64,000 nucleotides of DNA from NCBI GenBank assembly GCA_001600815.1, contig BCKZ01000007.1, positions 620,001-684,000 of the forward strand, written 5' to 3'. Each line of letters opens with the position of its first letter. The first letter of the stretch is position 1. Source of the DNA: Alloascoidea hylecoeti (taxonomy: Eukaryota). Of the stretch, positions 7,319 through 49,971 are shown piece by piece. The translations under genes were made by a program, and so were the position numbers. The notes under the pieces were generated by a model, which did no database searches, was not told where the DNA came from, and saw only the letters and a program-made list of their open reading frames with translations.

Positions 7319-7535
7319 TAGTGATTTCACTTAATTTCGGACATTCTGACTACTAATTATCGGACACTCCCACAATTAATTATCCGACGGGCTACAATGT
7401 ATAACCAGTACTGTATCCGTTAACATGCAGGCTAGGGATATAGAGCAACCTTGGGTGCGCCAAACCCGTCCGAAAATTAGTTGTGGGTGTCCGATAATTA
7501 GTAGTCAGAATATCCGAAATTAAGTGAAATCACTG
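7319..7535. mobile_element. MITE, Tc1/mariner-type, ~72-bp terminal inverted repeats
   Basis: 7319-7391 is the reverse complement of 7465-7535 apart from 5 substitutions and a 2-nt indel. Right end CACTG is followed by TA. No ORF. Confidence 0.85.
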
Positions 7536-18003: not shown

Positions 18004-18551
18004 TCTTGATCAGGATCTAGACGGTATAGCTATATGTATCATCATACACGTAGATACGTTTTCATAATCAGATAAATATCATACCCTACTATATACATAT
18101 ATCATGTCCATAACTACCTTATTATGTAGTAAAACTCAACGCAACGATCAGCAGAAAGGTTAATTCTTCCTCTTAACCAATCTAATAGATAAAAAAACGG
18201 ATAAAATGGAGATAACTCTCAAATAGACATGAACGACAGAGTTTAGTATAACAAAAAATACAAATTCTGGGGCCGTTCTCATGAGTTATTAGATATTCCA
18301 CGGCCAACATTTAGCATCATGATGGGCTTTTTGGTATGTATTACATTGCTAGCTCATGTTGTCATCATTATCTTAATAATGGAAACCAGTCTCAGGTTTA
18401 CACCTTGTAGTAATCACCAGTACAAAAATTATTCAGTCTGAATATTACACATCAAATCGGTAAATCTCAGAACCGCTCAACAAAATTTGACCACTAAATA
18501 CTTCTATTCCTGATATATCTATTTCTACCCGATATCATAACTCTTAGAAAA

Positions 18552-19360
18552 ATGCCTATTGATCCTGAAAAGCTTGCCAAATTGCAAAAATCTGCCAGAA
18601 TTGGTATGTATGAAAATCTATAAATGGTTGATGATTCTTAATTTTGAAGCGGTCGACTTAGGTGGGGAATAATAGTAATTTGGGTTAGTCATTAAAAGAG
18701 GATGAATAATATTTATGTTATTTTATCGTTTTTCATCATATTTAATACGAATGTTGTTATTCAATGATTTTAATGGCTTAAAAAATTTCTGCGAAGTTAT
18801 AAGCTCCTTTATATTTTGATTGGCTCACCTGCAAGACCATTTTCCTTGGAAGCTAATTCATCCTTTTACTAACATGCTTTATAGGGTACGAATAAGAATC
18901 AATTGATATGTCATCGCTAATAACTTAAACTAACAATTATTATAGTGGCAAAGGTACTCCTCGTCGTAAGACAAAGAAGATCACCCATTCTGAATCGTCG
19001 GACCAAAAGCTTCAGGGTACTTTGAAGAAGCTTGGTGCTCAAGTGATCCCAGAGGTCGGCGAAGCCAACTTTTTCAGAGATGATGGTAAAGTTCTTCATT
19101 TCCCAAGAGTCCAAGTCCAAAGTGCTACCAATGCCAATACATTTGCTTTCACTGGTACTGCTCAGGAGAAGGACTTAGGTCAATTATTCCCAAACATTTT
19201 ACCACAATTAGGTAACGAATCTTTGGATGCTCTACGTAAATTGGCCGCCCAATTACAACAAACTGAACTAGGTGAGGCCGAAGCTGCTAAACAAGAAGCT
19301 GGTGATGAAGACATTCCCGACTTGGTTGAAGGCAAAACCTTTGAAGACAAAGTCGAGTAA
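18552..19360 (+). CDS. EGD1: Nascent polypeptide-associated complex beta subunit (BTF3); exons 18552-18603, 18885 (1 nt), 18946-19360
   Basis: Spliced MPIDPEKLAKLQKSARIGGKGTPRRK...DEDIPDLVEGKTFEDKVE; 52+1+415=468 nt, 155 aa. Both introns have GT..AG ends and ACTAAC branch points. Confidence 0.92.
18622..18842 (+). ncRNA. Candidate structured intronic RNA in EGD1 intron 1
   Basis: Four nested stems of 8, 8, 11 and 9 bp (G-U allowed). Box-C-like TGATGA just inside the 5' terminal stem; no canonical box D. Confidence 0.45.
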
Positions 19361-20374
19361 ATAGAACAATCAAAATTAAAACGATTAAATGAAATTAAAA
19401 TGGAAAATGAAATATTTGTCACTAAATTATATATTAATTGTTTATTATGATCTTTTGTATACTTATTATATGTTTAACGTATTAGAATGACTCGCAAATA
19501 TATGCTCAAATGTATTTCTTTTGCTGATTGTTTGTCATTATTTATATGTTATGATTAATATATGGTAAATATGAAACATTTTAAGTCCTTGTATTGCTGA
19601 AGTTATTCTAGTTTTGCAGCAAATATAAATTGGTGTGCACTTTGGAATATAATTAATATTAGTGGAGTGATGAAAGCCGGTATATTATCTCACGAACTAT
19701 TATCACCCTATACTAGCTATAGGTAATGCCAAATCTCTACATCAGTTAGTTTGACCTGTTACCAAAGGATTAGGAATTGATTATTACTAATTATGTCTCC
19801 AGTTGACCTCCGCTAATAGCTCCTGAAAATTACTTTATATATCATCTAATGAAGGTAGTATAATTATTGGAATATAATAGCTCTAGAGGGAAAATATATG
19901 TTATGTTTTGTTGATTTTATACCTGTTACAACCAGTTTCATGTTGGATGTGTCATGAGGAACTTCATCCAAAAAGCCTATATTTTGCATTTTGCGTCAAA
20001 ACGTTGTATTTGCTGCTGACCCCACACAGATGCCAAAATTAAAGTATTTGTAAACAGCTGATGCCCCTTGCAATTGTAGAGCACTACACTTAGATGAACT
20101 TCTTCTTTCCTATAAGCCACTAATAATAAATTAGTGACCTGTTAAGAATCCCGTCCCATCCGCTGTATAATCAATTATAAGATCATTAATATTAAAATTG
20201 CTTTCATTGTTATTGTAGGTAATTTAAGAACTTAAATATATTGATAGAATAATGTATGATATTACGTCGTGCACAAACCTAAATGTCAATTATTAGGCCT
20301 TTTTCTCGACTATAAGAATCACATAGATCCCCCATAAATTTTAATAGCAATTTTATTACATATTTAAATTCATT

Positions 20375-36972: not shown

Positions 36973-38589
36973 TTAGAATAAGACAAAACCGATACCACCG
37001 AAGAAGAAAGTACCTAAAATTACCAACATTGATAATTCTCCAGCACCAATGGTTGGAACACTAACTGGATTAGCCCATGAAGAAGAAGAAGAAGATTTGC
37101 TGCTACTTCCACTCTTGGAGCCACTAGATTTAGAATTAGAACCACCTGAAGAACTTTCATCAGCGGCTGATGAAGCAGAAGCCAAAGCCTTTGAGCATGA
37201 AGCATTAGATGTAGCCTTTGAGTTGTAAGAAGCACTTCCACTAAAATCACAAGCAGAAGAAGAGGCACCATTCTCGGAATAATAATGATTAAGAGCCCAG
37301 TTAAGTTTAGCTTCAGCACCACAGTAAGAGAATGTACCATATTCACCTGATGTAGCATTACCGTTCAATTCATCACAAGAAACTTCACTACAGACATAAG
37401 CGAATAAGGTTGAGTAGTCATCAGTGTCAACACTGCTTGAAACAGTACAAGCCAAGTTACTAAGACAGTCACAAGCATCTTTATCAGGTGTTGGTGGTAA
37501 ATTACTTGAAGCACCCCAATTTGTTGCAGTTGGACATGATGCTCTGTTTGTATTTGTTGGAGTATAAGAAGCGGAGTTGACAGATGAAGGAGAAATATCG
37601 GCAATAGCGGAAGACAAGTAATTGAAATCTGATTCAGTCTTAATTGAAGATCCTGAAAGAGTAACTAAACCATAATTATTAGCTTCTTCAAAATACATAT
37701 AGACAATACCACCAGACCAAACATCAGTCATATCTGAACTGTATAAAGTACCAGTTTCTTGGAATTTTCTTGGAGTAACTTCATTACATCCATATTCAGA
37801 GAAAAAGACAGGAACACTATAGTTTGCAAATTCCTTTGTTCTATCTTCGTAACCGGATTTGGCAAATGTAGAAGTACCACACCATTCATACATATTAATA
37901 CCGTAGAAATCAACAGCTTCATCATCATCACCACAGTTAAAGTATTCTAATAGGTTAACACGAGTATCAGAATCATCATTAGTGGAGTAACCAACAGGAA
38001 TAGCTCTATAACCTTTGTCACTAATATAAGCCTTCATATCACGAACAGCAGCCTTGACATAAGCGGATGCCTCAGTGTTGGTATCGTTATTGGTGACCTC
38101 GTTACCAGCGAAGAAACCTAGAACATTGTCGTATTGTTGTAAATCATCGATGACGGCAGCATATCTGTCATATAGTGTAACAGTCCATGAAGGATCATCA
38201 CGGTTAATGGAAATTGTTGGTTCGGATAAATCAGCAATGATGTAAATACCATTATCGGCAAACAGGTTGATACAGTCGCTGTGATCTTCAGTTGTGTTGA
38301 CGGCATAGACACGGAGAGCGTTGGTACCTAACTTAAGTAGGTAAGGTAAATCTCTCTTACATCCATCATAATCAGCCAAAGGATCTGTGAAAGAAGAGTC
38401 TGCACTGGTGACGTCTTGCTGGTAAGCGACACCCTTGATGTAGAATTGGGAACCGTTACCGGCATAAAAGAATTTGTTTCCCTTGATTACGATGCTGCTA
38501 GAAGAGGAGGAGGAGGAAGCGGCAGTGGCCGTTGAGAACACGGAGAGTCCGGCGACCGCCAAAGCAAGCAGTTTTGAGCCCCAGAACAT
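36973..38589 (-). CDS. GAS1: GPI-anchored beta-1,3-glucanosyltransferase (GH72 + X8/Cys-box)
   Basis: Signal peptide, [27 protein letters not shown], Cys-box, Ser-rich linker, GPI signal. Confidence 0.92.
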
Positions 38590-38824
38590 TGTTGAACGAG
38601 ACTATTGATAGAATAAGTTGAAAGAAAATGACCCGAAGTAACGAAAAGAGCGAAGGTGGGTTGGGAAGAAATAAAAAAAGAAGTTAAGTGCAACTTTGAG
38701 GATCTGTGTTGATATTTAAAGGGATGCCTGAAACATGCAACCACGCCCGAACAAGCTCTGTAGGCTGTGCTTAAACTGAAAAAGCACATAGGCTAAGCCT
38801 TGGCCGGCCCGTTGCCGTGGGGAC

Positions 38825-38932
38825 GCGGGTCACGTGCACCGATTATTTCAGACCACATTCCCTATGCCATTTGTTCCAGCCTGCTATCCTGGGAGCAGCC
38901 TCATTGATCCCTCCATCCCCACGTGACCCCGC
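38825..38932. promoter_or_regulatory. Inverted pair of GCGGG(G)TCACGTG E-box (Cbf1/bHLH-like) motifs in a GC-rich GAS promoter
   Basis: gcgggtcacgtg 38825-38836 and cacgtgaccccgc 38920-38932. Confidence 0.45.
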
Positions 38933-39499
38933 GAGCTACGAGTGGCCCTCGGCTGCGGATCAATTCGACCAAATCACACTCCGATCATGTATCAGATAGC
39001 TCATGAAACTCCATACTTTTTCGGTTTCCATTTCCGTTTCAACTTTGGAATATTCGGTTTGAGTTTGGCTTCGATATGACTTTGTTCTTCAATTTCAATT
39101 ACTTCTGTACGCCTGTTTATTAATAGCATACAAGCCTCACTTATATTATGATTACATAACAATCGATCTGATAAATATCCTTTGATACATTAATGTCTTT
39201 AACCACTCCATATCAACTTATCAAGCCTCACTAGTTATATTATTCAGTACATACCAAATTTAAATTTAATAAAATCTACATCTAATGATTGACACATACT
39301 ACTATGAACGTAATTTGAAATTAAACATTATTATAAGTTATATATGCGAGGTAAAATGACCAAGAGTCATGTTATGAAAATTTTAAAATGATGAAACGTA
39401 TCAAATAACCACACCGTTAAATATACGGCTGGTTGAAAATGATGTTTATAACATTTAACGTTGCAATTGGAAAATATTTTGAAAATAATTCGGGATGGC

Positions 39500-41113
39500 T
39501 TAGAAGATAATGGAAACACCAAATAATCCGCTTAAAATCATAACGCCTACCATCATCAAAGATCCATTATCAACTTGATATCCAACATTTGCTAAAGAAC
39601 TTCCTGATGCCTTTGAACTTGATGAACTACTGGTACCTGAACCTTTTGAACTCGATTTAGATCCTGAACTAGACTGTGTTGCACTTTTAATAGCGTTTGA
39701 AATAAGTGATTCACAGGTTGAATTACTAGATGATTGTAAAGTAGCCATACCATCAAAATTGCAAGCACTATCACTTGAATCATTATCTAAATAATATTGA
39801 TTAAGGACAACTGATAACTGCTCTTTGGGTTGACATCCTGAAAATGCTCCATATACACCTGTTGTTCCATTGGCTGTAATTGAACTACAGTCTCCCTTAC
39901 CACAAACGATTCCAAATAATTCACTATAATCATCTTCGTCTACATCATCAGCTAAAACACATTTTAATCCCTTATGAACACAATCACATAAATCTTCATT
40001 TGGTGTTGGTGGTAACTCGAGTGCCGCCTTCCAGTTAGGACCATCTGTTGGAGGGCATTGAAATTCACCTGTAGCAGTAGGTGTATAATCTGCAGATTTC
40101 ACTCCTTTTGGTGTAACTTTGGCAATTTCCGAGGATAAATAACCATAATCCGTTAAAGTCTTAACTTTCCCTTTATCAATAGAAACTAAACCATAATTAT
40201 TGGCTTCTTCAAAATACATATATACAATACCACCAGACCAAACGTCAATCATATCATCACCATAAATTGTACCAACTTCGGTAAATTTTCTTGGCGTCTT
40301 CTCATTACAACCATATTCTGAAAAGAACACTGGAATTGTCATATTTTCAAATAATGTGGTTAATTGTGAATAACCTGATAATTTGAAACTTGATTCACCG
40401 CACCATTCATAGACATTAATCCCGTAAAAGTCGGCGGCATCTTCGCTATCACCACAAGCAAAATAATTGGCCATTGCAATTCTTGTGTCAATATCATCAT
40501 TTGAAGAATAACCAACTGGTATCTCACGATAACCTTTTTCTTTGATGTATGCTTTGCAGTCACGTACAGCTGCCTTCACAAATGGGGAAGCTGCAGTATT
40601 ATTGGAGGAGATTGTAACTTCATTACCAGCAAAAAAGCCTAAAACATTATCATATTGTTGTAGATTATCAATCACAGCGGTATATCGTTCATAATGATCA
40701 ACATCCCATGATGGATTATATCTATTAATTGATACCTTTGGATTTGATAAATCGGCAATAATATAAATCCCCGCATCATCGAACATTTTCATACAAGCGT
40801 CATGATTAGCATCTGGATCAACAGCATAAACACGAAGGGCATTTGTACCAAGGTCAACAAGGTAAGGGAGATCTCGTTTACATGTTTCTTCATCAGCCAA
40901 TGGATCTATATAGTCCTTTGAAGTTCCTGTAGTATCTGACTGGTATGCAATACCCTTTATGAAGAATTGGGAACCGTTTCCCGAGTAAAAGAACTTTGTG
41001 CCTTTAGAAACTATAGGGTCGGAAGCTGCTAATGTTGAGCTGGCCAGCAACGAGGACAGAAACAAAAGCGAGAGAGATAGTGGGCTTGAGGAGGAACTCG
41101 AGAAGAGCTGCAT
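39500..41113 (-). CDS. Tandem GH72 + X8 beta-1,3-glucanosyltransferase paralogue
   Basis: Same GH72 catalytic motifs, Cys-box and GPI signal as the neighbouring gene. Confidence 0.92.
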   Translation of the reverse strand: MQLFSSSSSSPLSLSLLFLSSLLASSTLAASDPIVSKGTKFFYSGNGSQFFIKGIAYQSDTTGTSKDYIDPLADEETCKRDLPYLVDLGTNALRVYAVDPDANHDACMKMFDDAGIYIIADLSNPKVSINRYNPSWDVDHYERYTAVIDNLQQYDNVLGFFAGNEVTISSNNTAASPFVKAAVRDCKAYIKEKGYREIPVGYSSNDDIDTRIAMANYFACGDSEDAADFYGINVYEWCGESSFKLSGYSQLTTLFENMTIPVFFSEYGCNEKTPRKFTEVGTIYGDDMIDVWSGGIVYMYFEEANNYGLVSIDKGKVKTLTDYGYLSSEIAKVTPKGVKSADYTPTATGEFQCPPTDGPNWKAALELPPTPNEDLCDCVHKGLKCVLADDVDEDDYSELFGIVCGKGDCSSITANGTTGVYGAFSGCQPKEQLSVVLNQYYLDNDSSDSACNFDGMATLQSSSNSTCESLISNAIKSATQSSSGSKSSSKGSGTSSSSSSKASGSSLANVGYQVDNGSLMMVGVMILSGLFGVSIIF

Positions 41114-41961
41114 TATTTAACAATTGTACCAAAGAGTGAATGAAGAGAAAAAACAAAAGAATTGGAGGCAGAAAAGCAGGTATAAATAAAAAAATCTGGT
41201 TCGCGGCGGGCGGGATGGTTGTTTATTTTTACATTAATATGTGTTTGTGCCAAGCGCCAAGGGCCAAGCTAGCCATTGAACACTGTAATTATTAATAACC
41301 AAAATCTCATTTTAACATTACAACCTTATAAAATAACACCCAATTACTATACAGCCCCAACCCTAACTGTCTTACACTGGTAAGGGTATCGATTTAATTA
41401 TGGTACGAAAAAGTACTCTATCCCAAGGATCATGGTTACTCTCTTGGTCTTGCTGTTGAAAAAAAAGTTATGAAAACGTTCAATTCATCATCAAACCTTA
41501 TGTATAACTAACTACCCTATTTCTCCAGACTATTACTGTTCTATTTGGTTATTGCTTGAATGAAATAAGTTGTCGTAAATTATATACATCTTTACTATTC
41601 ATAAGGAACTTTAAGGTTGAAGCTAATCATTTAAGTTTCCAAAAAAAAAAAAAAAAAACCTGAAAAAACCAAAATGTAGTCTTCAATGTCACGATTTTCT
41701 TCAAAGGTACCTTGCATTCGGTATATTTAACATTGTAATTTAATTATATGAATTCACCTTATTTTTAGGACCAAATAATTTATGGATGAGCGCCCAGCGC
41801 AACGTAATCACTCTAACGGGTACTACGTATTTCTTATTTACAGTTATCATATAGAACTACGTATACGAGTGATATATACGAATAATATGTGTGCATATTC
41901 TTATTTGTCAACAAGCCTTCTGTTATTATACTAATATCAACTATTAATTTATATATGATGA

Positions 41962-44900
41962 TTATATTGTTAGCGTTGGGGTCTGTGTTACAATCGTACT
42001 AGGAGCATTTGGTCCCGTGTCATTGTTATCCTGAGATGTAGGTTGAATGAGTCCAACTCCAATCAAAGAGGGTATCGAGCTATAGCTATGAATATCCGGT
42101 ATCATACTACCTGCTAAAAGCGGCCCAACAAATAAGAGGATAAAAAACGCAAATGTAATAAAGTAAAGTATTATACTCCGAACCAACTTTTTCCTATTAT
42201 TTGGTCGCCTTTTTTCGGCTTTAACTCTTCTCAAATTTTTTGTCCTCTTTGGTTTCAACCAAAATAAAACCCAAAAATGAATCCAGTCAATCCATGGTAT
42301 ACATACAAGTGGTAGTTGTACAAACAATAAGAAGTTTCCAAGAATAAAATCAACCGCAAACATATTCATTTCTTCAAGTTTGCATAGAAACTCTCGAAAT
42401 GGCTGCCCGATTCCACTCCATCCAACAAGCCTCCAGTCTCCTGTCCACCAAGCAACATTAACTGCATCTCCTCGGTATTCTCTCGTGAGCAAAAACGCTG
42501 ATAAAACACTGTAAATAAGCCGTTGTATCGATAACACACTAATAAGTCCTAATAAACCTCGAGTTTTATTCCACCCTTCAAAATACCATAACAGTTCAAT
42601 TGATGCAATATGGTTAATAACTGCCATTCCATGGGCAATAAAAGCAACGGTATTAGCCATTTTCCTTCCAGCGAATGGAACTAACAATAGTGATCCAAGA
42701 CCCAAAAATATCAGAATAACGCCATCGATTACAATAGGTATCAAAGCACAAATTATTAATCTCATCACTGTATTCGCTGGTATCACCTTATTATTATTTA
42801 CTTCCCGAACACCATTTTGTGCATTTATAAAACTAAATGCACAAAAGCATGCACAAGCATTTATTAGTGGCAGTCCCAAGGCAGTAAATAATGAATTCGT
42901 TAAATGTGGCCTAATATATCCTGATATCGAGCCTGCCTCATGTTGTACTGCTTTTAACTGTCGTTTCTTACTTCCGGTAATCTTTGTTCGGGTATTACTA
43001 ACATGCGATATCCAAGAATTCGAAGATCTTGCAACTTTATCATTTCCTCTGCTTAACCAACAAATAAAATCTCCATAATCAATAAAAAACCGTTTCCATT
43101 CAAACTGATGTGGATTAAAAAGGAATGGGGATATACAAAGCGATGTAACTGTTACCCAAATCCAGAGTAACGCTGGCTGCCATATCGTGACACACCCAAA
43201 AAGTAGCATTAAACCGCTTCGTACCCCATCGTATATTGCTGTAGGGGTATATGTTGAATATAGATGATGAAATGTATTCCTTTCGATTGCGTACCCTCTG
43301 CCTGTACCTATATAGCGAGCACCACCAAGAGAAATATCACAAAACAATGCTTGTGCATATATCTGGCAAACAAAAACTTCAAAAAATGGTGATAGTGATA
43401 AAAAATGATGCCCAAAACGAGTCAGAGATTTTATTAATCCATTCTCGGTAAATTCTTCAACAAGTAGAGGTGAAAAAGATATGAAAAATACAATGAATAT
43501 AGACAAAATGAATATTTTAACCCAATGAAGAACAGGAACCAAGTTATAACAGCCGATCGGTAACATTAATTTAGTTATCTCATCTTCCATTTTGAAATCA
43601 CATAAAATAGATTCATGAACCATCGATCCCAAATTTATGAGAATTAACATGAACATTTCCATAGATATCATAATGAACAAATTATTGATATGGAAACCAG
43701 GGTGCGCATAATAAAATGACAGAAATCTATCTAATGGTAACTGGGTTCCGAGATAAAAGTATTCTCTTGAAAGCATCTGTTCACCCATTCCAGCTCCAAT
43801 CTTTGACGTAAAATTAAGTATCGAGTCAAACCCAAGATCGCGCCCCTTGCCACATTGATAGAAATCGCAATGTTTGATTCTTCCTCCTCTACATAATGCA
43901 TTCATACCTGCGTATATATCTTCATTCAAATGTAATCCCTTCTGTGCCTTTGAGATTCCACCTCGAGTGGTCATGAATATAGCATTCAAGAAGTCAGGGT
44001 GCCCATAATGAAGTTTACCGCTAACAGTTGCCATGGTTCGTGCAAAAAGAGTTCCAAATGTTTTTTCCTTTCCAGCGGCTACATCTCCTAATATACCAGC
44101 CTCTTCAGAAAAAATAAACTCTCTAGCCCCGACAAATGCCACTGGCGCTTTACTTGTTGTTCCTTCATAATAAGGATCTAAATCGTTGGGAACATTCAAT
44201 TCTTCAAACTCGGCTAGAACAGATCGAATCTTTAAGCATTCTTCTAAATAATTATCCTGATTCGCATCAATTACCTGGATGTATTCTCCTCTGTAAAATT
44301 GTAGAGCCATATTCTGATTATCGCTTTTACCATCACCAATGATTGGATTGCCTGAAAGTTGAACTCGGTATCTTGGACGACGTTTTCCTTTTTTTGTTAT
44401 TTTGCAACTTCCATCAATCAAAACAGCAAAATATTTTTTTGATTCTTCTTCATCATAGTTTTTATTGGTACTATAATTATCATCAGTTTCTTCTTTTTCA
44501 ACTTCTAAATAAGCTATCTGTAACTGAGGAAATGCTCTCAACAAAAATTCGGTACTCTTATATTCTTCTATGCTAAAATCATTTAGCCTTTGCATAGACA
44601 CAAGCATCTTGAATTTTCTAGAAGCCATTTGATTCAGTTCCTTGTCCAGACTCTCTGAATTATTACTAAACATATTCATAATGTCGGAATTTTCAACATG
44701 GTATAAAAGTTTCAAAGCACGTTGATAGTTCATAAACCCGGAAATAGTTCGATATAATGTCTGAGATCTCGTTGATGCCCATATTCTAGTACGCAATATA
44801 TTTTCTGCTGATGAAGATTTAAAAATCATACGATTTAGATCCTTTGAACAATGCCTCAACTTAGGTATTTCTTTAAAATCATCGAAAGTAAATATTTTTG

Positions 44901-47588
44901 AACTTGGATCATCCACTTCAACTTCTGAGTCAGTAGAGTCTTCATCATCAATATCTGGTTCATTGAGTAAAAAGTTAGTTTCTTTTACAAATGCCTTCCA
45001 TTCCAAAGGAAATAATCTTTTTAAATATTCTAATAATGTCATGTCACCATTTGTACTATCCTCCTTGAGCAATTCTTTGATCGAAAACATAATAGTCTCT
45101 TTATAATGGGGAATCATCACAGTAAAGGTAGGCATACAATCTATGGCCAATGGTTCTTGAATTTTGCATGCTAAAGACTGGGAAAAAAAAGACAATCTCC
45201 GTTCTGCTTCCGAGTTGTGCGAATAAAAATCAGAACTCGAATGTCTGTCATCTTGAGAAATGAAAAAAGACGGTCCTCTAATCGCTATTGCATTCTCCAA
45301 TTGACTAGTTATATCATGGTACATGAGTTTTCCTGCTTGTTCAATTGTCAAAAAATGCTCTCGATATAAGGATATAATTATGGAATTCCAAATTTGAGAG
45401 ACATATCTTGTCTTGGTGATAGGGGTAACATCTGAACTAACTAGCAATTTATGGTATATTCTGTCGGGTAGCTGAGAAAAAACCTTTCTCCAAGGAGTGA
45501 ATAACGATATTCCATTTCTAAAGGACAAAGCAATGGACAAAATACAACTGCACATGACATACCATAAATAAGTGTCAAGAAAAAACAGAATCAAATCTGT
45601 GAAATACATTAAACCAAGGAGAATTAACGGTTGAATTTGGCATAAAATATTTCCAAGGTATTGCTCGCCATGACATCGTGTCATTTTCATAATTGATAAA
45701 TCTCTTATAGGATCACGTATAGATAGAGTCAGGAAAAAATAAGATTCGGTAAGTTTTGCTACAAAAACAATAATCCAAAATGCTATTGAAATGACACGAT
45801 TATGGAAGGAGATGCTCGGGAATGATGCAGTAAAGTTTTTTGAAGGAATGTATCTTCGTGTATTCTTATCTAAGTATGATCCCATAAGTGCACCCAGCGG
45901 AGTTATTGAGAGATAGAGACAGGTGCAAATAGCTATCGCAAATTGAATTCCAGCAATTATTGCCGCCGTTTTTGAGTATATATCAAGAGGAAATTTCATA
46001 AATATGAAAATTGAGGGAGCGATGTTTACCGTAAGTAAGCCCAATAGAAGGAATAATCTGCCTATTATTGATTGGGCACCTGGCCAGTTTCTGGGTACGA
46101 ACCACGATTCGCTTAAAAGAGCTATTAATTCAATTATGACGGCAATAGTACCACCAAGGGAAACGGACGACCACCGAGCATGCAGTGATGGTTCATTGTT
46201 CAAGAGCTGATGATATTCTTCTGTGTATAAAGTTGGAGAGTTAAATGCTGTGTAGAACCAAAATATAGTTATGTGTATTATCCAGATACGATTGAAGTTT
46301 GTGACTAAATGAAACCAGGTTCTAGTCTCTCTGTATGTTTTGAAGAAAACCTTTGACCAAACGGCACTTTTTAGATGATTATACCGTGACTCTAATGGTT
46401 TATCTATTAGATGTGAATTATCATCTAAAATGATTCTCTTAATTCCCTCAGGATACCAAAAAAGTTGGTTCACATCATCATATCCAATAACTTTATTATG
46501 ATCACTATTCCTTTGAATGTATTTTCCCTTCACAAGTTTATACCTTTGATTTCTTAAGAATTTGTATAGCGGTGTAATAACATCTTCAAGGTATGCACCA
46601 TTTTTAACAATATTTGTACTATTTTTACATTCAGTTGAGTTGTAATAATCATTGGCACACTTAAAAATAAAGCATAGACATTCAGGAACAAACCGAATCT
46701 GATTTGCCTCTCCCCATATTAGAAAATAGAGAGCCAATTGTTCAACTTTTTCATTATCTTTCATATTTTTCATTTTCATTAACCAATTGGATTCTGCCGT
46801 TTCAAGGGAATAGTCTAGAGAGTTGTTTTTCTTATCATCCTTTTTTAATATTCTTTTAATTTTTTGGAAAGATCTATTTAAGGGGATTTTGCCAAATCCT
46901 GTTTGGTCATCTATATCAATTCGAGCAGCTAAATACCATTTTTTATAGTTTGCGTTCTTTCCACCGATATAATCTGCATGAAGACTATCCAAAGCCTTAG
47001 GGGCAAACATACGAGATGCTCTAGAGTCCAATTGTGTCATTAAATGATCAAACATATTGTTCATACTCTCCTTCTGAAATCCAAATTTATACGTCAAATC
47101 AATAAATATGGATCTTATTTCCTCTGTACTTATAGGCATATGATTTTTTTCACACCATGCAGGATAAAGGTTATCAGGGATAACTTGTCGAAATGGGTTG
47201 AACTGCTGTTCCATATTAGATGAAAGATAAGAGGAGTTATTATTTATAGAATAGTCAAGATTAAAATCGACGAGATATGATGTGCCATTTTCTGTGAAAG
47301 CAGGTCCAATTGATGGCCCGGCGATGGATTGGTGGCGATCAGGCGGTAGTGAGTTTTGCTCATTTCCCCCTCGTTTATTTTCTGATATTGATGAGGGTGA
47401 ATCTTTTAATTTTGTAGAATTTACATCATCATACTGTTGATAGTTAAGGTAGTAGTTATAAAGATCATTGATATTCTCATGATCATTTGTTGGCAATAGT
47501 TGAAGAATGTCTAATAAATATTAACTTGGCTATTCTATCTTTCCAATTTCTTTTTTAATCATAACTTACCTCCACTTTGTTCATTCAT
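41962..47588 (-). CDS. FKS3: 1,3-beta-glucan synthase (GT48), probably FKS3-type; exon 1 47588-47570, intron 47569-47511, exon 2 47510-41962
   Basis: LIWGEANQIRF, GDGKSDNQN, IDANQDNYLEE, HYGHPDF, GLHLNEDIYAG, KIGAGMGEQ. An ATG exon spliced via GTAAGT..TAG joins the TTG-started ORF in frame. The FKS3 subtype is inferred from divergence and gene neighbourhood. Confidence 0.8.
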
Positions 47589-47915: not shown

Positions 47916-49971
47916 ATGTCTTCAACATCCCCCTCCTCTACGTATAACCCTTCCACTTTCAGATCTTGCCATCATATCACATCGGCATTAAATTCAAATG
48001 CAAAGCAGACCATTCTGGAAAATTATGGATTAGCTGTTTTGGTTTCCCTAATAAACTCATCAGACTATAATAAGTACTACAACCGTAAGGCCCATCCTCA
48101 CTCACATGAAAACAGAAAAAAAACAGGGAAAGTTTTAGTTGAGCCGAGGAAATTATATAGCTTAAGAGCTGATGCTTTAAAATGTAAAGACTGTCATACT
48201 AATTGTGGGACATCATTTATGTGTCTGCAATGTCCAAACGTCGGTTGTTGGTCTCTGAATCATGCTTCAAAACATTCAAAAACTAGTAATCATCATTTTG
48301 GTAAGTTAAACAGAAATTCAACTTCTATACATTTAATATCGCAATTTATTCCCTTCTCTCTCCTTTTTTCTTTTTTTTTCTTTTTTATTGAATTATAGGT
48401 TGGTACTAATTCAACCTTAGGTATCGACACAAAACTAGGAGTAATATTTTGCTTCAAGTGCGGAACATATGTTGGGGAAGAGAGGATAGAAGCTATGCGG
48501 GAGAAAAAAATCAAACAACTTCATAGTCGTTGTAAGCTTGAAAATTGTATAACCCAAAAAGTCCAAGGGTTTATATTTGGCTAACTTATTCCTTATTTTT
48601 CAAGTCTCTTGTAATGGTCAATTACCCGTTTATCTTAATCCTAATATTTCTTCGAACGAAAAACAATTTATAAATGAAAACTCAACATTACCAAGTTACA
48701 AAGCCACGACTGGATTACGAGGATTCTATAATATGGGTTCCACTTGCTTCATGAGCTCTATTCTTCAATCTCTGCTCCACAATCCATTGATCCGAAATTT
48801 CTTCTTGTCCGGTAGACATACCGATTGTGACCGGAATAAAGATCATTGCATAGCATGTTGCATCGATGAGATATTTACAGAGGTTTGTATTGATTTTTTT
48901 GGCTTAACTTGTTTTTTGATGATTCCCTAACTTATATATGTTACCAAGTTTTACTCCTCATCCGTAACTTCAGGCTATGGTCCCACATCATTTCTAATTG
49001 CAGCATGGAATTCTAATAAATCATTTGCTGGATATTCTCAGCAAGATGCTCATGAATTCTGGCAGTTTCTGGTCAATGAACTTCACAAAATTACTGCTTA
49101 TGAAGCAATAGAAGAGGTTCGGAAAGAAAAAGGGGACGTGATATCAAATGGACAAGTTATCCAATCCTATCCTGATTCAAAAAATTTAGATCAATATTCA
49201 ATTGATGGTAACTGCCCATGCTTTATTCATGAAACATTTGGCGGATTACTACAAAGCAATGTTAAATGCCAACATTGTCATAATATAACAACTACGATTG
49301 ATCCTATGTTAGACTTAAGTTTGGAAATACGAAAAGATATTCCAAAAGATGGTGCGCTACAAAAATTGACTGATTGCTTGGATAGATTTACTGGAGTAGA
49401 GAAATTGGATATGATGATATATTGTTCGAAGTGTGATGCTCAAAGAAATGTCACCAAAAAGCTGACTATTAAAAAACTACCTGTTGTACTCTCAATTCAA
49501 TTAAAGGTAAGATTCATTTTGTCTCTTTGTATTACATTCTCCACTTTATCTTGTTGATCACTAACGGTTCATTTAGCGCTTTGAACATTTTGCATCATCC
49601 GCTAAAATTCAAACACATGTTCAATTCCCATTAATTATTAACATGAAAGATTATGTCACACAAGAAAACACACCTGAAGCTACGTTTGGTGAAAAGGCTA
49701 ATGAGGATGGACTTATTTATGAACTATTTGCTGTCATCTGTCATATTGGTTCTGTCAATACTGGACATTATATCTGTATGGTGAAATCAAGAGAAGGAAG
49801 AGTAAGTTCTGTTAACTGATTATTATTTAAACAAATTTAATCTAACTTTTAATAATATCTCATATCTAGTGGTTCAGATTTGATGATGCTGTTGTGAGTC
49901 TTGTTACTCCAACTCAAGTTTTAGATACCAACGCCTATTTATTATACTACATTATGCAAGACATTCCTTAA
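47916..49971 (+). CDS. UBP8: SAGA deubiquitinase Ubp8; exons 47916(or 47826)-48300, 48421-48531, 48605-48882, 48949-49506, 49577-49801, 49870-49971
   Basis: ZnF-UBP cysteines, GFYNMGSTCFMSSILQ Cys box, QQDAHEF, GHY His box, WFRFDD. Five GT..AG introns give one continuous frame. Confidence 0.9.

Follow-up and report, generated by a model that had tools for sequence, protein, structure and literature searches.

How can a gene encode a conserved protein motif when the two coding pieces that meet within that motif are one base out of step? The question is raised by a gene on the plus strand (18552-19360) of a 64-kb window, which is the whole stretch of contig BCKZ01000007.1 of Alloascoidea hylecoeti analysed here. 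On translation, this gene encodes NAC-beta (EGD1/BTF3-type), a subunit of a ribosome-associated chaperone. When its outer exons are joined directly (18603 to 18946), the reading is one base out of frame and a stop follows after 43 codons. Our answer is that one base lying between them, G18885, is very probably retained as an exon of its own between two canonical introns. With this G, the coding sequence amounts to 52 + 1 + 415 = 468 nt, or 155 codons without an internal stop, and gives a protein of 155 residues. On re-reading of the window sequence, all coordinates of the initial annotation were correct, and so was its claim that the outer exons alone frameshift and that G18885 restores both the motif and the 468-nt frame.

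At the protein level, exon 1 encodes MPIDPEKLAKLQKSARI, alignable with the N-termini of fungal NAC-beta proteins, and then leaves a lone G at 18603, so that the exon end reads ATT G. The last exon opens with T GGC AAA GG at 18946, reads GKGTPRRK... from 18947, and reaches its TAA stop at 19358-19360; it holds the full Pfam NAC profile (PF01849, E 5.2e-19, positions 1-57 of 57). Together, G18603, G18885, and T18946 make up a glycine codon, with G18885 in the middle. The junction then reads R-I-G-G-K-G-T-P-R-R-K, which is identical in Trichomonascus, Lipomyces, Dipodascopsis, and many filamentous fungi. This is the N-terminal basic motif of NAC-beta, as an alignment with 18 homologues confirms; the motif has a role in ribosome binding. 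The best named NAC-beta matches share 50-57% identity with the window protein.

At the level of splice signals, a canonical acceptor and a canonical donor directly flank G18885, and both introns have a branch site of their own and are of workable length (Table 1). The distance from the branch A to the intron end is 12 nt in both. We scanned the 64 kb on both strands for the composite signal CTAAC-N(3-30)-AGGGTANG and compared the result with shuffled sequences. There was one match in the window, at 18869-18890, with a shuffled expectation of 0.04 (a match turned up in 4 of 100 shuffles). By itself, the octamer AGGGTANG is nothing unusual, with 5 observed and 3.2 expected. For comparison, we used four other introns of the window that are supported by homology. 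They measure 70-120 nt and have GTACGT (twice), GTAAGT, and GTAAGA as donors and TACTAAC, AACTAAC, TACTAAT, and CACTAAC as branch sites. Their donors thus vary, and the GTACGA donor, the AACTAAC branch site, and the 60-nt length of intron 2 fall within the range of this organism, as far as a sample this small can define it.

Table 1. Positions in the window of the exons and introns of the NAC-beta gene and of the four comparison introns
Feature	Positions	Strand	Description
Exon 1	18552..18603	+	52 nt; ATG, 17 codons, and the first G of the glycine codon
Intron 1	18604..18884	+	281 nt, phase 1; donor GTATGT (18604-18609), branch site TACTAAC (18867-18873), acceptor TATAG (ends 18884)
Putative one-base exon, G	18885..18885	+	between AG and GT; needed for the frame
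Intron 2	18886..18945	+	60 nt, phase 2; donor GTACGA (18886-18891), branch site AACTAAC (18928-18934), acceptor TATAG (ends 18945)
Last exon, coding part	18946..19360	+	third base of the split glycine codon, GKGTPRRK..., NAC domain, TAA
Intron in C2H2 zinc-finger gene	22537-22423	-	GTACGT donor; splits the second finger
UBP8-like ubiquitin hydrolase intron	48301-48420	+	120 nt; GTAAGT donor, TACTAAT branch site; protein continuity restored
UBP8-like ubiquitin hydrolase intron	49507-49576	+	70 nt; GTAAGA donor, CACTAAC branch site; protein continuity restored
Intron in p24-family (p24/ERV25-like) gene	62485-62411	-	GTACGT donor

The same layout is found well beyond this organism. We scanned JGI and ENA metagenome contigs with a fungal NAC-beta protein alignment, which gave 425 confirmed stretches, and analysed the best 80. 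The two introns with a single G between them are present at the same glycine codon in 24 of these 80 loci, which form 17 groups when clustered at 85% identity or more, one of them yeast-like. The common plan reads ATH G, GT...branch...AG, G, GT...branch...AG, N GGN AAR GG, with the branch sites 10-20 nt upstream of the AG. The third base of the split codon is T, C, or A, as expected of a glycine codon. The introns range from 53 to 631 nt and are otherwise unalignable. The nearest named proteins belong to Eurotiomycetes, Sordariomycetes, Lecanoromycetes, Leotiomycetes, Dothideomycetes, and Pezizomycetes, class labels that are rough because they come from nearest named matches at 50-85% identity. 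In the yeast-like locus (L031), the introns measure 631 and 141 nt, with GTATGT donors and TACTAAC branch sites, and the motif reads K-V-G-G-A-R-R-K; around the G this locus has ACTAACATG...TTATAGGGTA in common with the window, and 31 of 47 columns are identical. In another locus (L032), the second donor is GTACGA, as in the window.

Among the remaining loci, 50 are contiguous at the junction: short cDNA-like contigs, and genomic loci without introns that come from CTG-clade-like yeasts, Saccharomyces-like yeasts, and other eukaryotes. All 50 have an uninterrupted G-G pair, and none has an insertion or deletion form. Three loci are cut off upstream (L019, L039, and L070), and the first of these begins inside intron 2 and is not informative on the junction. 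The last three (L017, L057, and L071) have a single phase-1 intron in this codon (ATH G, intron, GN GGN) and lack the second one, which some lineages seem either to have lost or never to have acquired. The position of intron 1 is thus common to the 24 two-intron and the three single-intron loci. The nearest match of L017 is a Fusarium protein (92%). Two of the 80 loci (L065 and L069) have no junction intron but match over 477-492 nt, a span that points to an intron further downstream and so to a third gene structure; they come from fungi with about 64% identity at most to any named match.

One of the contiguous contigs, L015, can be compared with a two-intron locus, L041. It also lacks the downstream intron that L041 has, and on the basis of these missing introns we infer that it is transcript-like. 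Its sequence matches the spliced form of L041 at 81 of 82 positions when the G is included and at 54 of 81 when it is left out. The two are 96-98% identical in the 5' exons and only 81% identical further 3', so L015 comes from a relative and not from the same genome. Such pairing of cDNA-like with genomic sequence was limited to L015 with L041-L044 at 96-98%; L008 and L020 reach 91-92% against L032, within the exon only. Of the contiguous contigs, only L030 ends in an A run, and L015 has no poly(A) tail; their transcript status is therefore judged by the missing introns.

Other assemblies bear out the underlying DNA. We compared four DNA runs with positions 18450-19450. In Logan contigs from another sample of this organism (X3), which may not be independent of the source of the window, there are 0 differences over 18538-19450. 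In a 14.9-kb contig of a wood-decay metagenome (X4), the only changes in the last exon are 19111 C>T and 19264 T>C, both synonymous and at third codon positions, and there is a 2-nt deletion at 18810, within intron 1. Neither X3 nor X4 has an insertion or deletion at the three junctions. Two further runs from other organisms of the same study (X9 and X10) gave no match to this region at 80% likeness. The initial annotation had named an extra G at either outer junction as the observation that would speak against it; we looked for it in the X3 and X4 DNA, and it is absent, which makes an assembly lacking a G very unlikely.

This bears on the idea that the gene is a frameshifted pseudogene, or that the assembly is short of one G. 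The coding pieces are indeed out of frame if read naively, and a further NAC-beta copy in the genome is possible. Against this, the three junctions are the same, base for base, in two further assemblies. Neither coding piece is interrupted by a stop, the two differences between strains change no residue, and the same apparent frameshift occurs in 17 groups of fungi. We consider this explanation extremely unlikely. Ribosomal frameshifting and RNA editing were also considered as ways to restore the frame and rejected on theoretical grounds: a slippery site is missing, and the second glycine codon could come from neither process.

A single intron is another explanation to be weighed. The one-nucleotide exon between two complete introns proposed in the initial annotation is well supported by the window signals, the DNA checks, and 24 of the 80 related loci; what that annotation overlooked is that two single introns are also canonical and in frame. 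By brute force, we listed the canonical GT-AG single introns in the window and in 17 group representatives. The window has four in-frame solutions, two of them near the junction: 18608-18945, which gives R-I-G-I-G-K-G and 156 aa, and 18604-18953, which gives R-I-G-T-P and 152 aa. The 17 representatives offer many in-frame pairs, but in none of them does a canonical single GT-AG intron near the junction yield R-I-G-G-K-G. The former route, from a GTATGA donor at 18608 to the acceptor at 18945, would add an isoleucine and make the internal AG-G-GT a coincidence. It has GT-AG ends and no stop, and A-ending donors exist in the organism (GTAAGA). Moreover, several public models of other fungi read R-I-G-I-G-K-G or R-I-G-T-G-K-G, so predictors favour this shifted-donor solution. 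Yet it bypasses the consensus GTATGT 4 nt upstream, together with a perfect TACTAAC and the first AG after it, and offers no reason for the composite signal, which has an expectation of 0.04 per window and is conserved across 17 groups. The route is absent in 5 of the 17 representatives (L032, L041, L058, L078, and L079), which have no GT at donor +5/+6. The inserted residue is found in none of the 50 contiguous loci, and L015 fits the one-G product. There is thus little chance that this intron is the one used.

The other route, ending at a second AG (in AAAG) at 18953, stands lower still, and we regard it as very unlikely. Its product of 152 residues would lack G-K-G (R-I-G-T-P-R-R-K). The ends are GT-AG, the frame is kept without a stop, and Saccharomyces-like and CTG-clade-like NAC-beta proteins are naturally shorter in this motif. 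However, the nearest AG downstream of each branch site (18884 and 18945) would have to be passed over, and the route does not explain the internal signals. Where relatives have AAG as their lysine codon, the AG lies in the wrong phase for a phase-1 donor; the R-I-G-T-P route exists only in AAA-G loci (L048, L056, L058, L078, and L079) and is therefore not a conserved solution. A third form of the single-intron idea is a non-canonical intron, either 18605-18945 (TA...AG) or 18604-18944 (GT...TA). Its mature sequence is identical to the product with the one-nucleotide exon: bases 18604 and 18945 are both G, so the mature mRNA alone cannot tell the two apart, and junction reads alone could not separate them. 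To our knowledge, there is no spliceosomal class with such ends. All relatives would need the same ends, yet each has a complete internal acceptor, a G, a donor, and a branch site. Such an intron has next to no chance of being the answer.

Some points do weigh against the retention of G18885. Apart from the two canonical in-frame introns and the shared mature mRNA just described, some yeasts have a naturally shorter motif (K-V-G-G-T/A-R), so a shortened product is not absurd. The donor GTACGA deviates from the GTATGT consensus, and the set with which it was compared consists of four introns of the organism. The class labels of the related loci are rough, and the contig taken as a transcript is both untailed and less similar to its genomic counterpart downstream. 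There may be a second NAC-beta copy elsewhere in the genome. For Alloascoidea hylecoeti itself, the splicing of both introns is deduced from DNA. Set beside the signals, the frame, and the 17 groups, these points leave the one-base exon as the very probable reading.

If G18885 is retained in this way, two ordinary spliceosomal reactions would remove the 281-nt and the 60-nt intron, and the base would stay in the mRNA. Fungal spliceosomes act by intron definition, which would allow an exon with no length to define. The intron 1 acceptor and the intron 2 donor are one base apart, so two spliceosomes acting at once are unlikely and the introns would be removed sequentially, not simultaneously. 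Whichever intron goes first, the other still has all its signals, and hence no order is forced. The ordered or recursive-like path suggested by the initial annotation is plausible as far as sequential removal goes, on steric grounds; the signals, which survive either way, impose no order. In a stwintron (spliceosomal twin intron), one intron sits within a splice signal of another, outer one, which forces the order of removal; here, the donor, branch site, and acceptor are uninterrupted in both introns. In recursive splicing with a zero-length exon, nothing lies between acceptor and donor; here, one base (18885) does, and it is needed for the frame. Removal in either order would thus set this case apart from both twin introns and zero-length-exon recursive splicing.

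A one-base exon would also be compatible with regulation, in which the G is either included or skipped and the skipped form is a 43-codon nonsense transcript that serves as a dosage switch for NAC-beta. Skipping, from the donor at 18604 to the acceptor at 18945, does lead to an early stop, and selection could be the reason why so awkward a structure has been conserved for so long. In S. pombe, a link between splicing and nonsense-mediated decay has been documented (bioRxiv 10.1101/226894). Conservation would follow just as well, however, from precise intron loss being rare, and a constitutive feature fits as well. One or both introns have been lost in many yeasts and some other fungi, which makes the structure dispensable. 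The switch, put forward in the initial annotation, is speculative and in our view unlikely, though less so than any of the single-intron solutions.

As to its history, the simplest course would be that an early ascomycete with an old phase-1 intron gained another one base further downstream, and the layout would then have been inherited from an ancestor common to filamentous ascomycetes and budding yeasts. Many lineages would later have lost one or both introns, among them those of the CTG-clade-like and Saccharomyces-like loci. This scenario is drawn from the phase-1 intron that stands alone in three loci and from the two-intron form in yeast-like and filamentous lineages. At its most far-reaching, it would mean that the codon was split over three exons before budding yeasts and filamentous ascomycetes separated, and that this would be the oldest and most widespread one-base exon known; at its boldest, selection would have kept it because the fidelity of splicing, or regulated skipping of the G into a nonsense transcript, sets the dosage of NAC-beta. 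We consider this far-reaching reading unlikely.

Public protein models bear the marks of this structure. Among the 120 public or predicted homologues listed (P0002-P0121), 87 have a GKGT-type motif; the junction is canonical in 39 of them, and 48 deviate exactly there. The deviations are inserted residues (an extra I, T, or D), read-through of the intron, and false N-termini. A one-base exon would explain why about half of the predicted NAC-beta proteins deviate at the junction, and the figure of 48 of 87 is consistent with widespread mis-modelling of this exon in public annotations. For a few of the 48, P0004 among them, the deviation is probably genuine. The only database protein that matches the Alloascoidea gene (P0002) is a 112-residue fragment starting at an internal TTG, a prokaryote-style gene call in which both upstream exons were missed. 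Another entry, P0118, is labelled as coming from the basidiomycete Cerrena zonata and has a NAC-beta N-terminus of the CTG-clade-yeast type (MPVDPEKLAKLQKAGPKKVGGARVK); it may represent contamination of the Cerrena zonata assembly.

One-base exons have already been published for other genes, and the NAC-beta case adds to a known rare kind. That such exons are very rare and missed by predictors, as the initial annotation had it, agrees with the few published cases and with the deviating homologues above. We found no published one-base exon in NAC-beta, EGD1, or BTF3, in a search that left subscription journals and supplements outside its scope; a mention of EGD1 in PMC11342254 is unrelated to one-base exons.

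A close likeness is with the CYP621A P450 genes of Fusarium, where a one-nucleotide exon is described in 20-24 genes of one genus (PMC12940212; Nelson and Syed 2026). They have the same AGGGT core, the G is likewise the middle base of a glycine codon in a conserved motif, and a phase-1 boundary meets a phase-2 boundary (PMC12940212). The exon was also found via orthologues and is routinely mis-annotated (PMC12940212). It concerns another gene in a single genus, whereas the NAC-beta layout spans several ascomycete classes as well as budding yeasts; and it has RNA support from read archives (PMC12940212), whereas the Alloascoidea case comes from DNA sequence alone. In Arabidopsis, APC11 has a single-nucleotide exon (PMC4674806; Guo and Liu 2015). 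As proposed for NAC-beta, it is a one-base coding exon that restores the frame; it is constitutive and had earlier been mis-annotated (PMC4674806). In this plant gene, the exon base is an A, and proof came from reporter constructs (PMC4674806), whereas for NAC-beta the argument is one of sequence.

Among budding yeasts, snoRNA host transcripts of the Candida parapsilosis group have single-base exons supported by RNA-seq (PMC5033589; Donovan et al. 2016). Here again a single G lies between two introns and the splicing mechanism is the classic one, with nested and recursive orders discussed (PMC5033589). Unlike the frame-critical base of NAC-beta, theirs lies in a non-coding transcript and carries no information (PMC5033589). 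SPNCRNA.445 of S. pombe has zero-length exons and recursive splicing (bioRxiv 10.1101/226894). An acceptor stands beside a donor within an apparently long intron that is removed piecewise, as proposed for NAC-beta; no base is retained there (bioRxiv 10.1101/226894), whereas NAC-beta would keep one, with both introns complete. Finally, a long-read annotation of Coprinopsis cinerea lists 13 one-nt exons in 13 genes (PMC12230235). They are also fungal one-base exons, detected since their omission breaks gene models; they belong to a basidiomycete, and deep conservation is not claimed for them (PMC12230235).

Some further observations concern the gene and its surroundings. An 11-mer at the exon 1 donor (TTGGTATGTAT, 18601-18611) recurs in the 5' flank at 18331-18341, 270 nt upstream, and this second copy is probably due to chance. 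The possibility that the two introns arose by tandem duplication of one was rejected, since common matches are only 7-9 nt long and leave no trace of duplication. A candidate intron with a GTACGA donor after the ATG at 41403 was also discarded because it opened no credible gene. Alloascoidea hylecoeti has more introns and looser donors than Saccharomyces. The gene content of the window is fungal: it encodes a hexose transporter, a cytochrome b2-like dehydrogenase, a mitochondrial-type isoleucyl-tRNA synthetase, an FKS-type glucan synthase, and two GH72 glucanosyltransferases. For the synthetase of the isoleucyl-tRNA type and for NAC-beta, the best named matches all come from budding yeasts (Wickerhamomyces, Pachysolen, Geotrichum, Nadsonia, and Ascoidea) and reach only 46-57% identity, which places the organism in Saccharomycotina, with no close named relative among the sequences searched. 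The two GH72 (GAS-like) genes lie in tandem beside the FKS-type 1,3-beta-glucan synthase gene, on the minus strand at 36973-47214, and form a small neighbourhood of cell-wall genes. At about 7348-7506, near-identical stretches of about 40 nt (starting GACTACTAATTATCGGACAC) lie on opposite strands as an inverted repeat.

One-base exons mark the lower limit of what the spliceosome can do, and only a handful are documented. In this case, the host is a conserved housekeeping gene in a budding yeast, a group usually considered intron-poor and strict in its splice signals. The interest of the locus is moderate, given that the phenomenon has been published for other genes; it lies in an exon that would be frame-critical, in a budding yeast, and apparently both old and widespread. 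For annotators, it offers a simple rule for correcting NAC-beta models. Its wide recurrence in filamentous ascomycetes would make the NAC-beta gene a natural test case for how two spliceosomes deal with sites one base apart.

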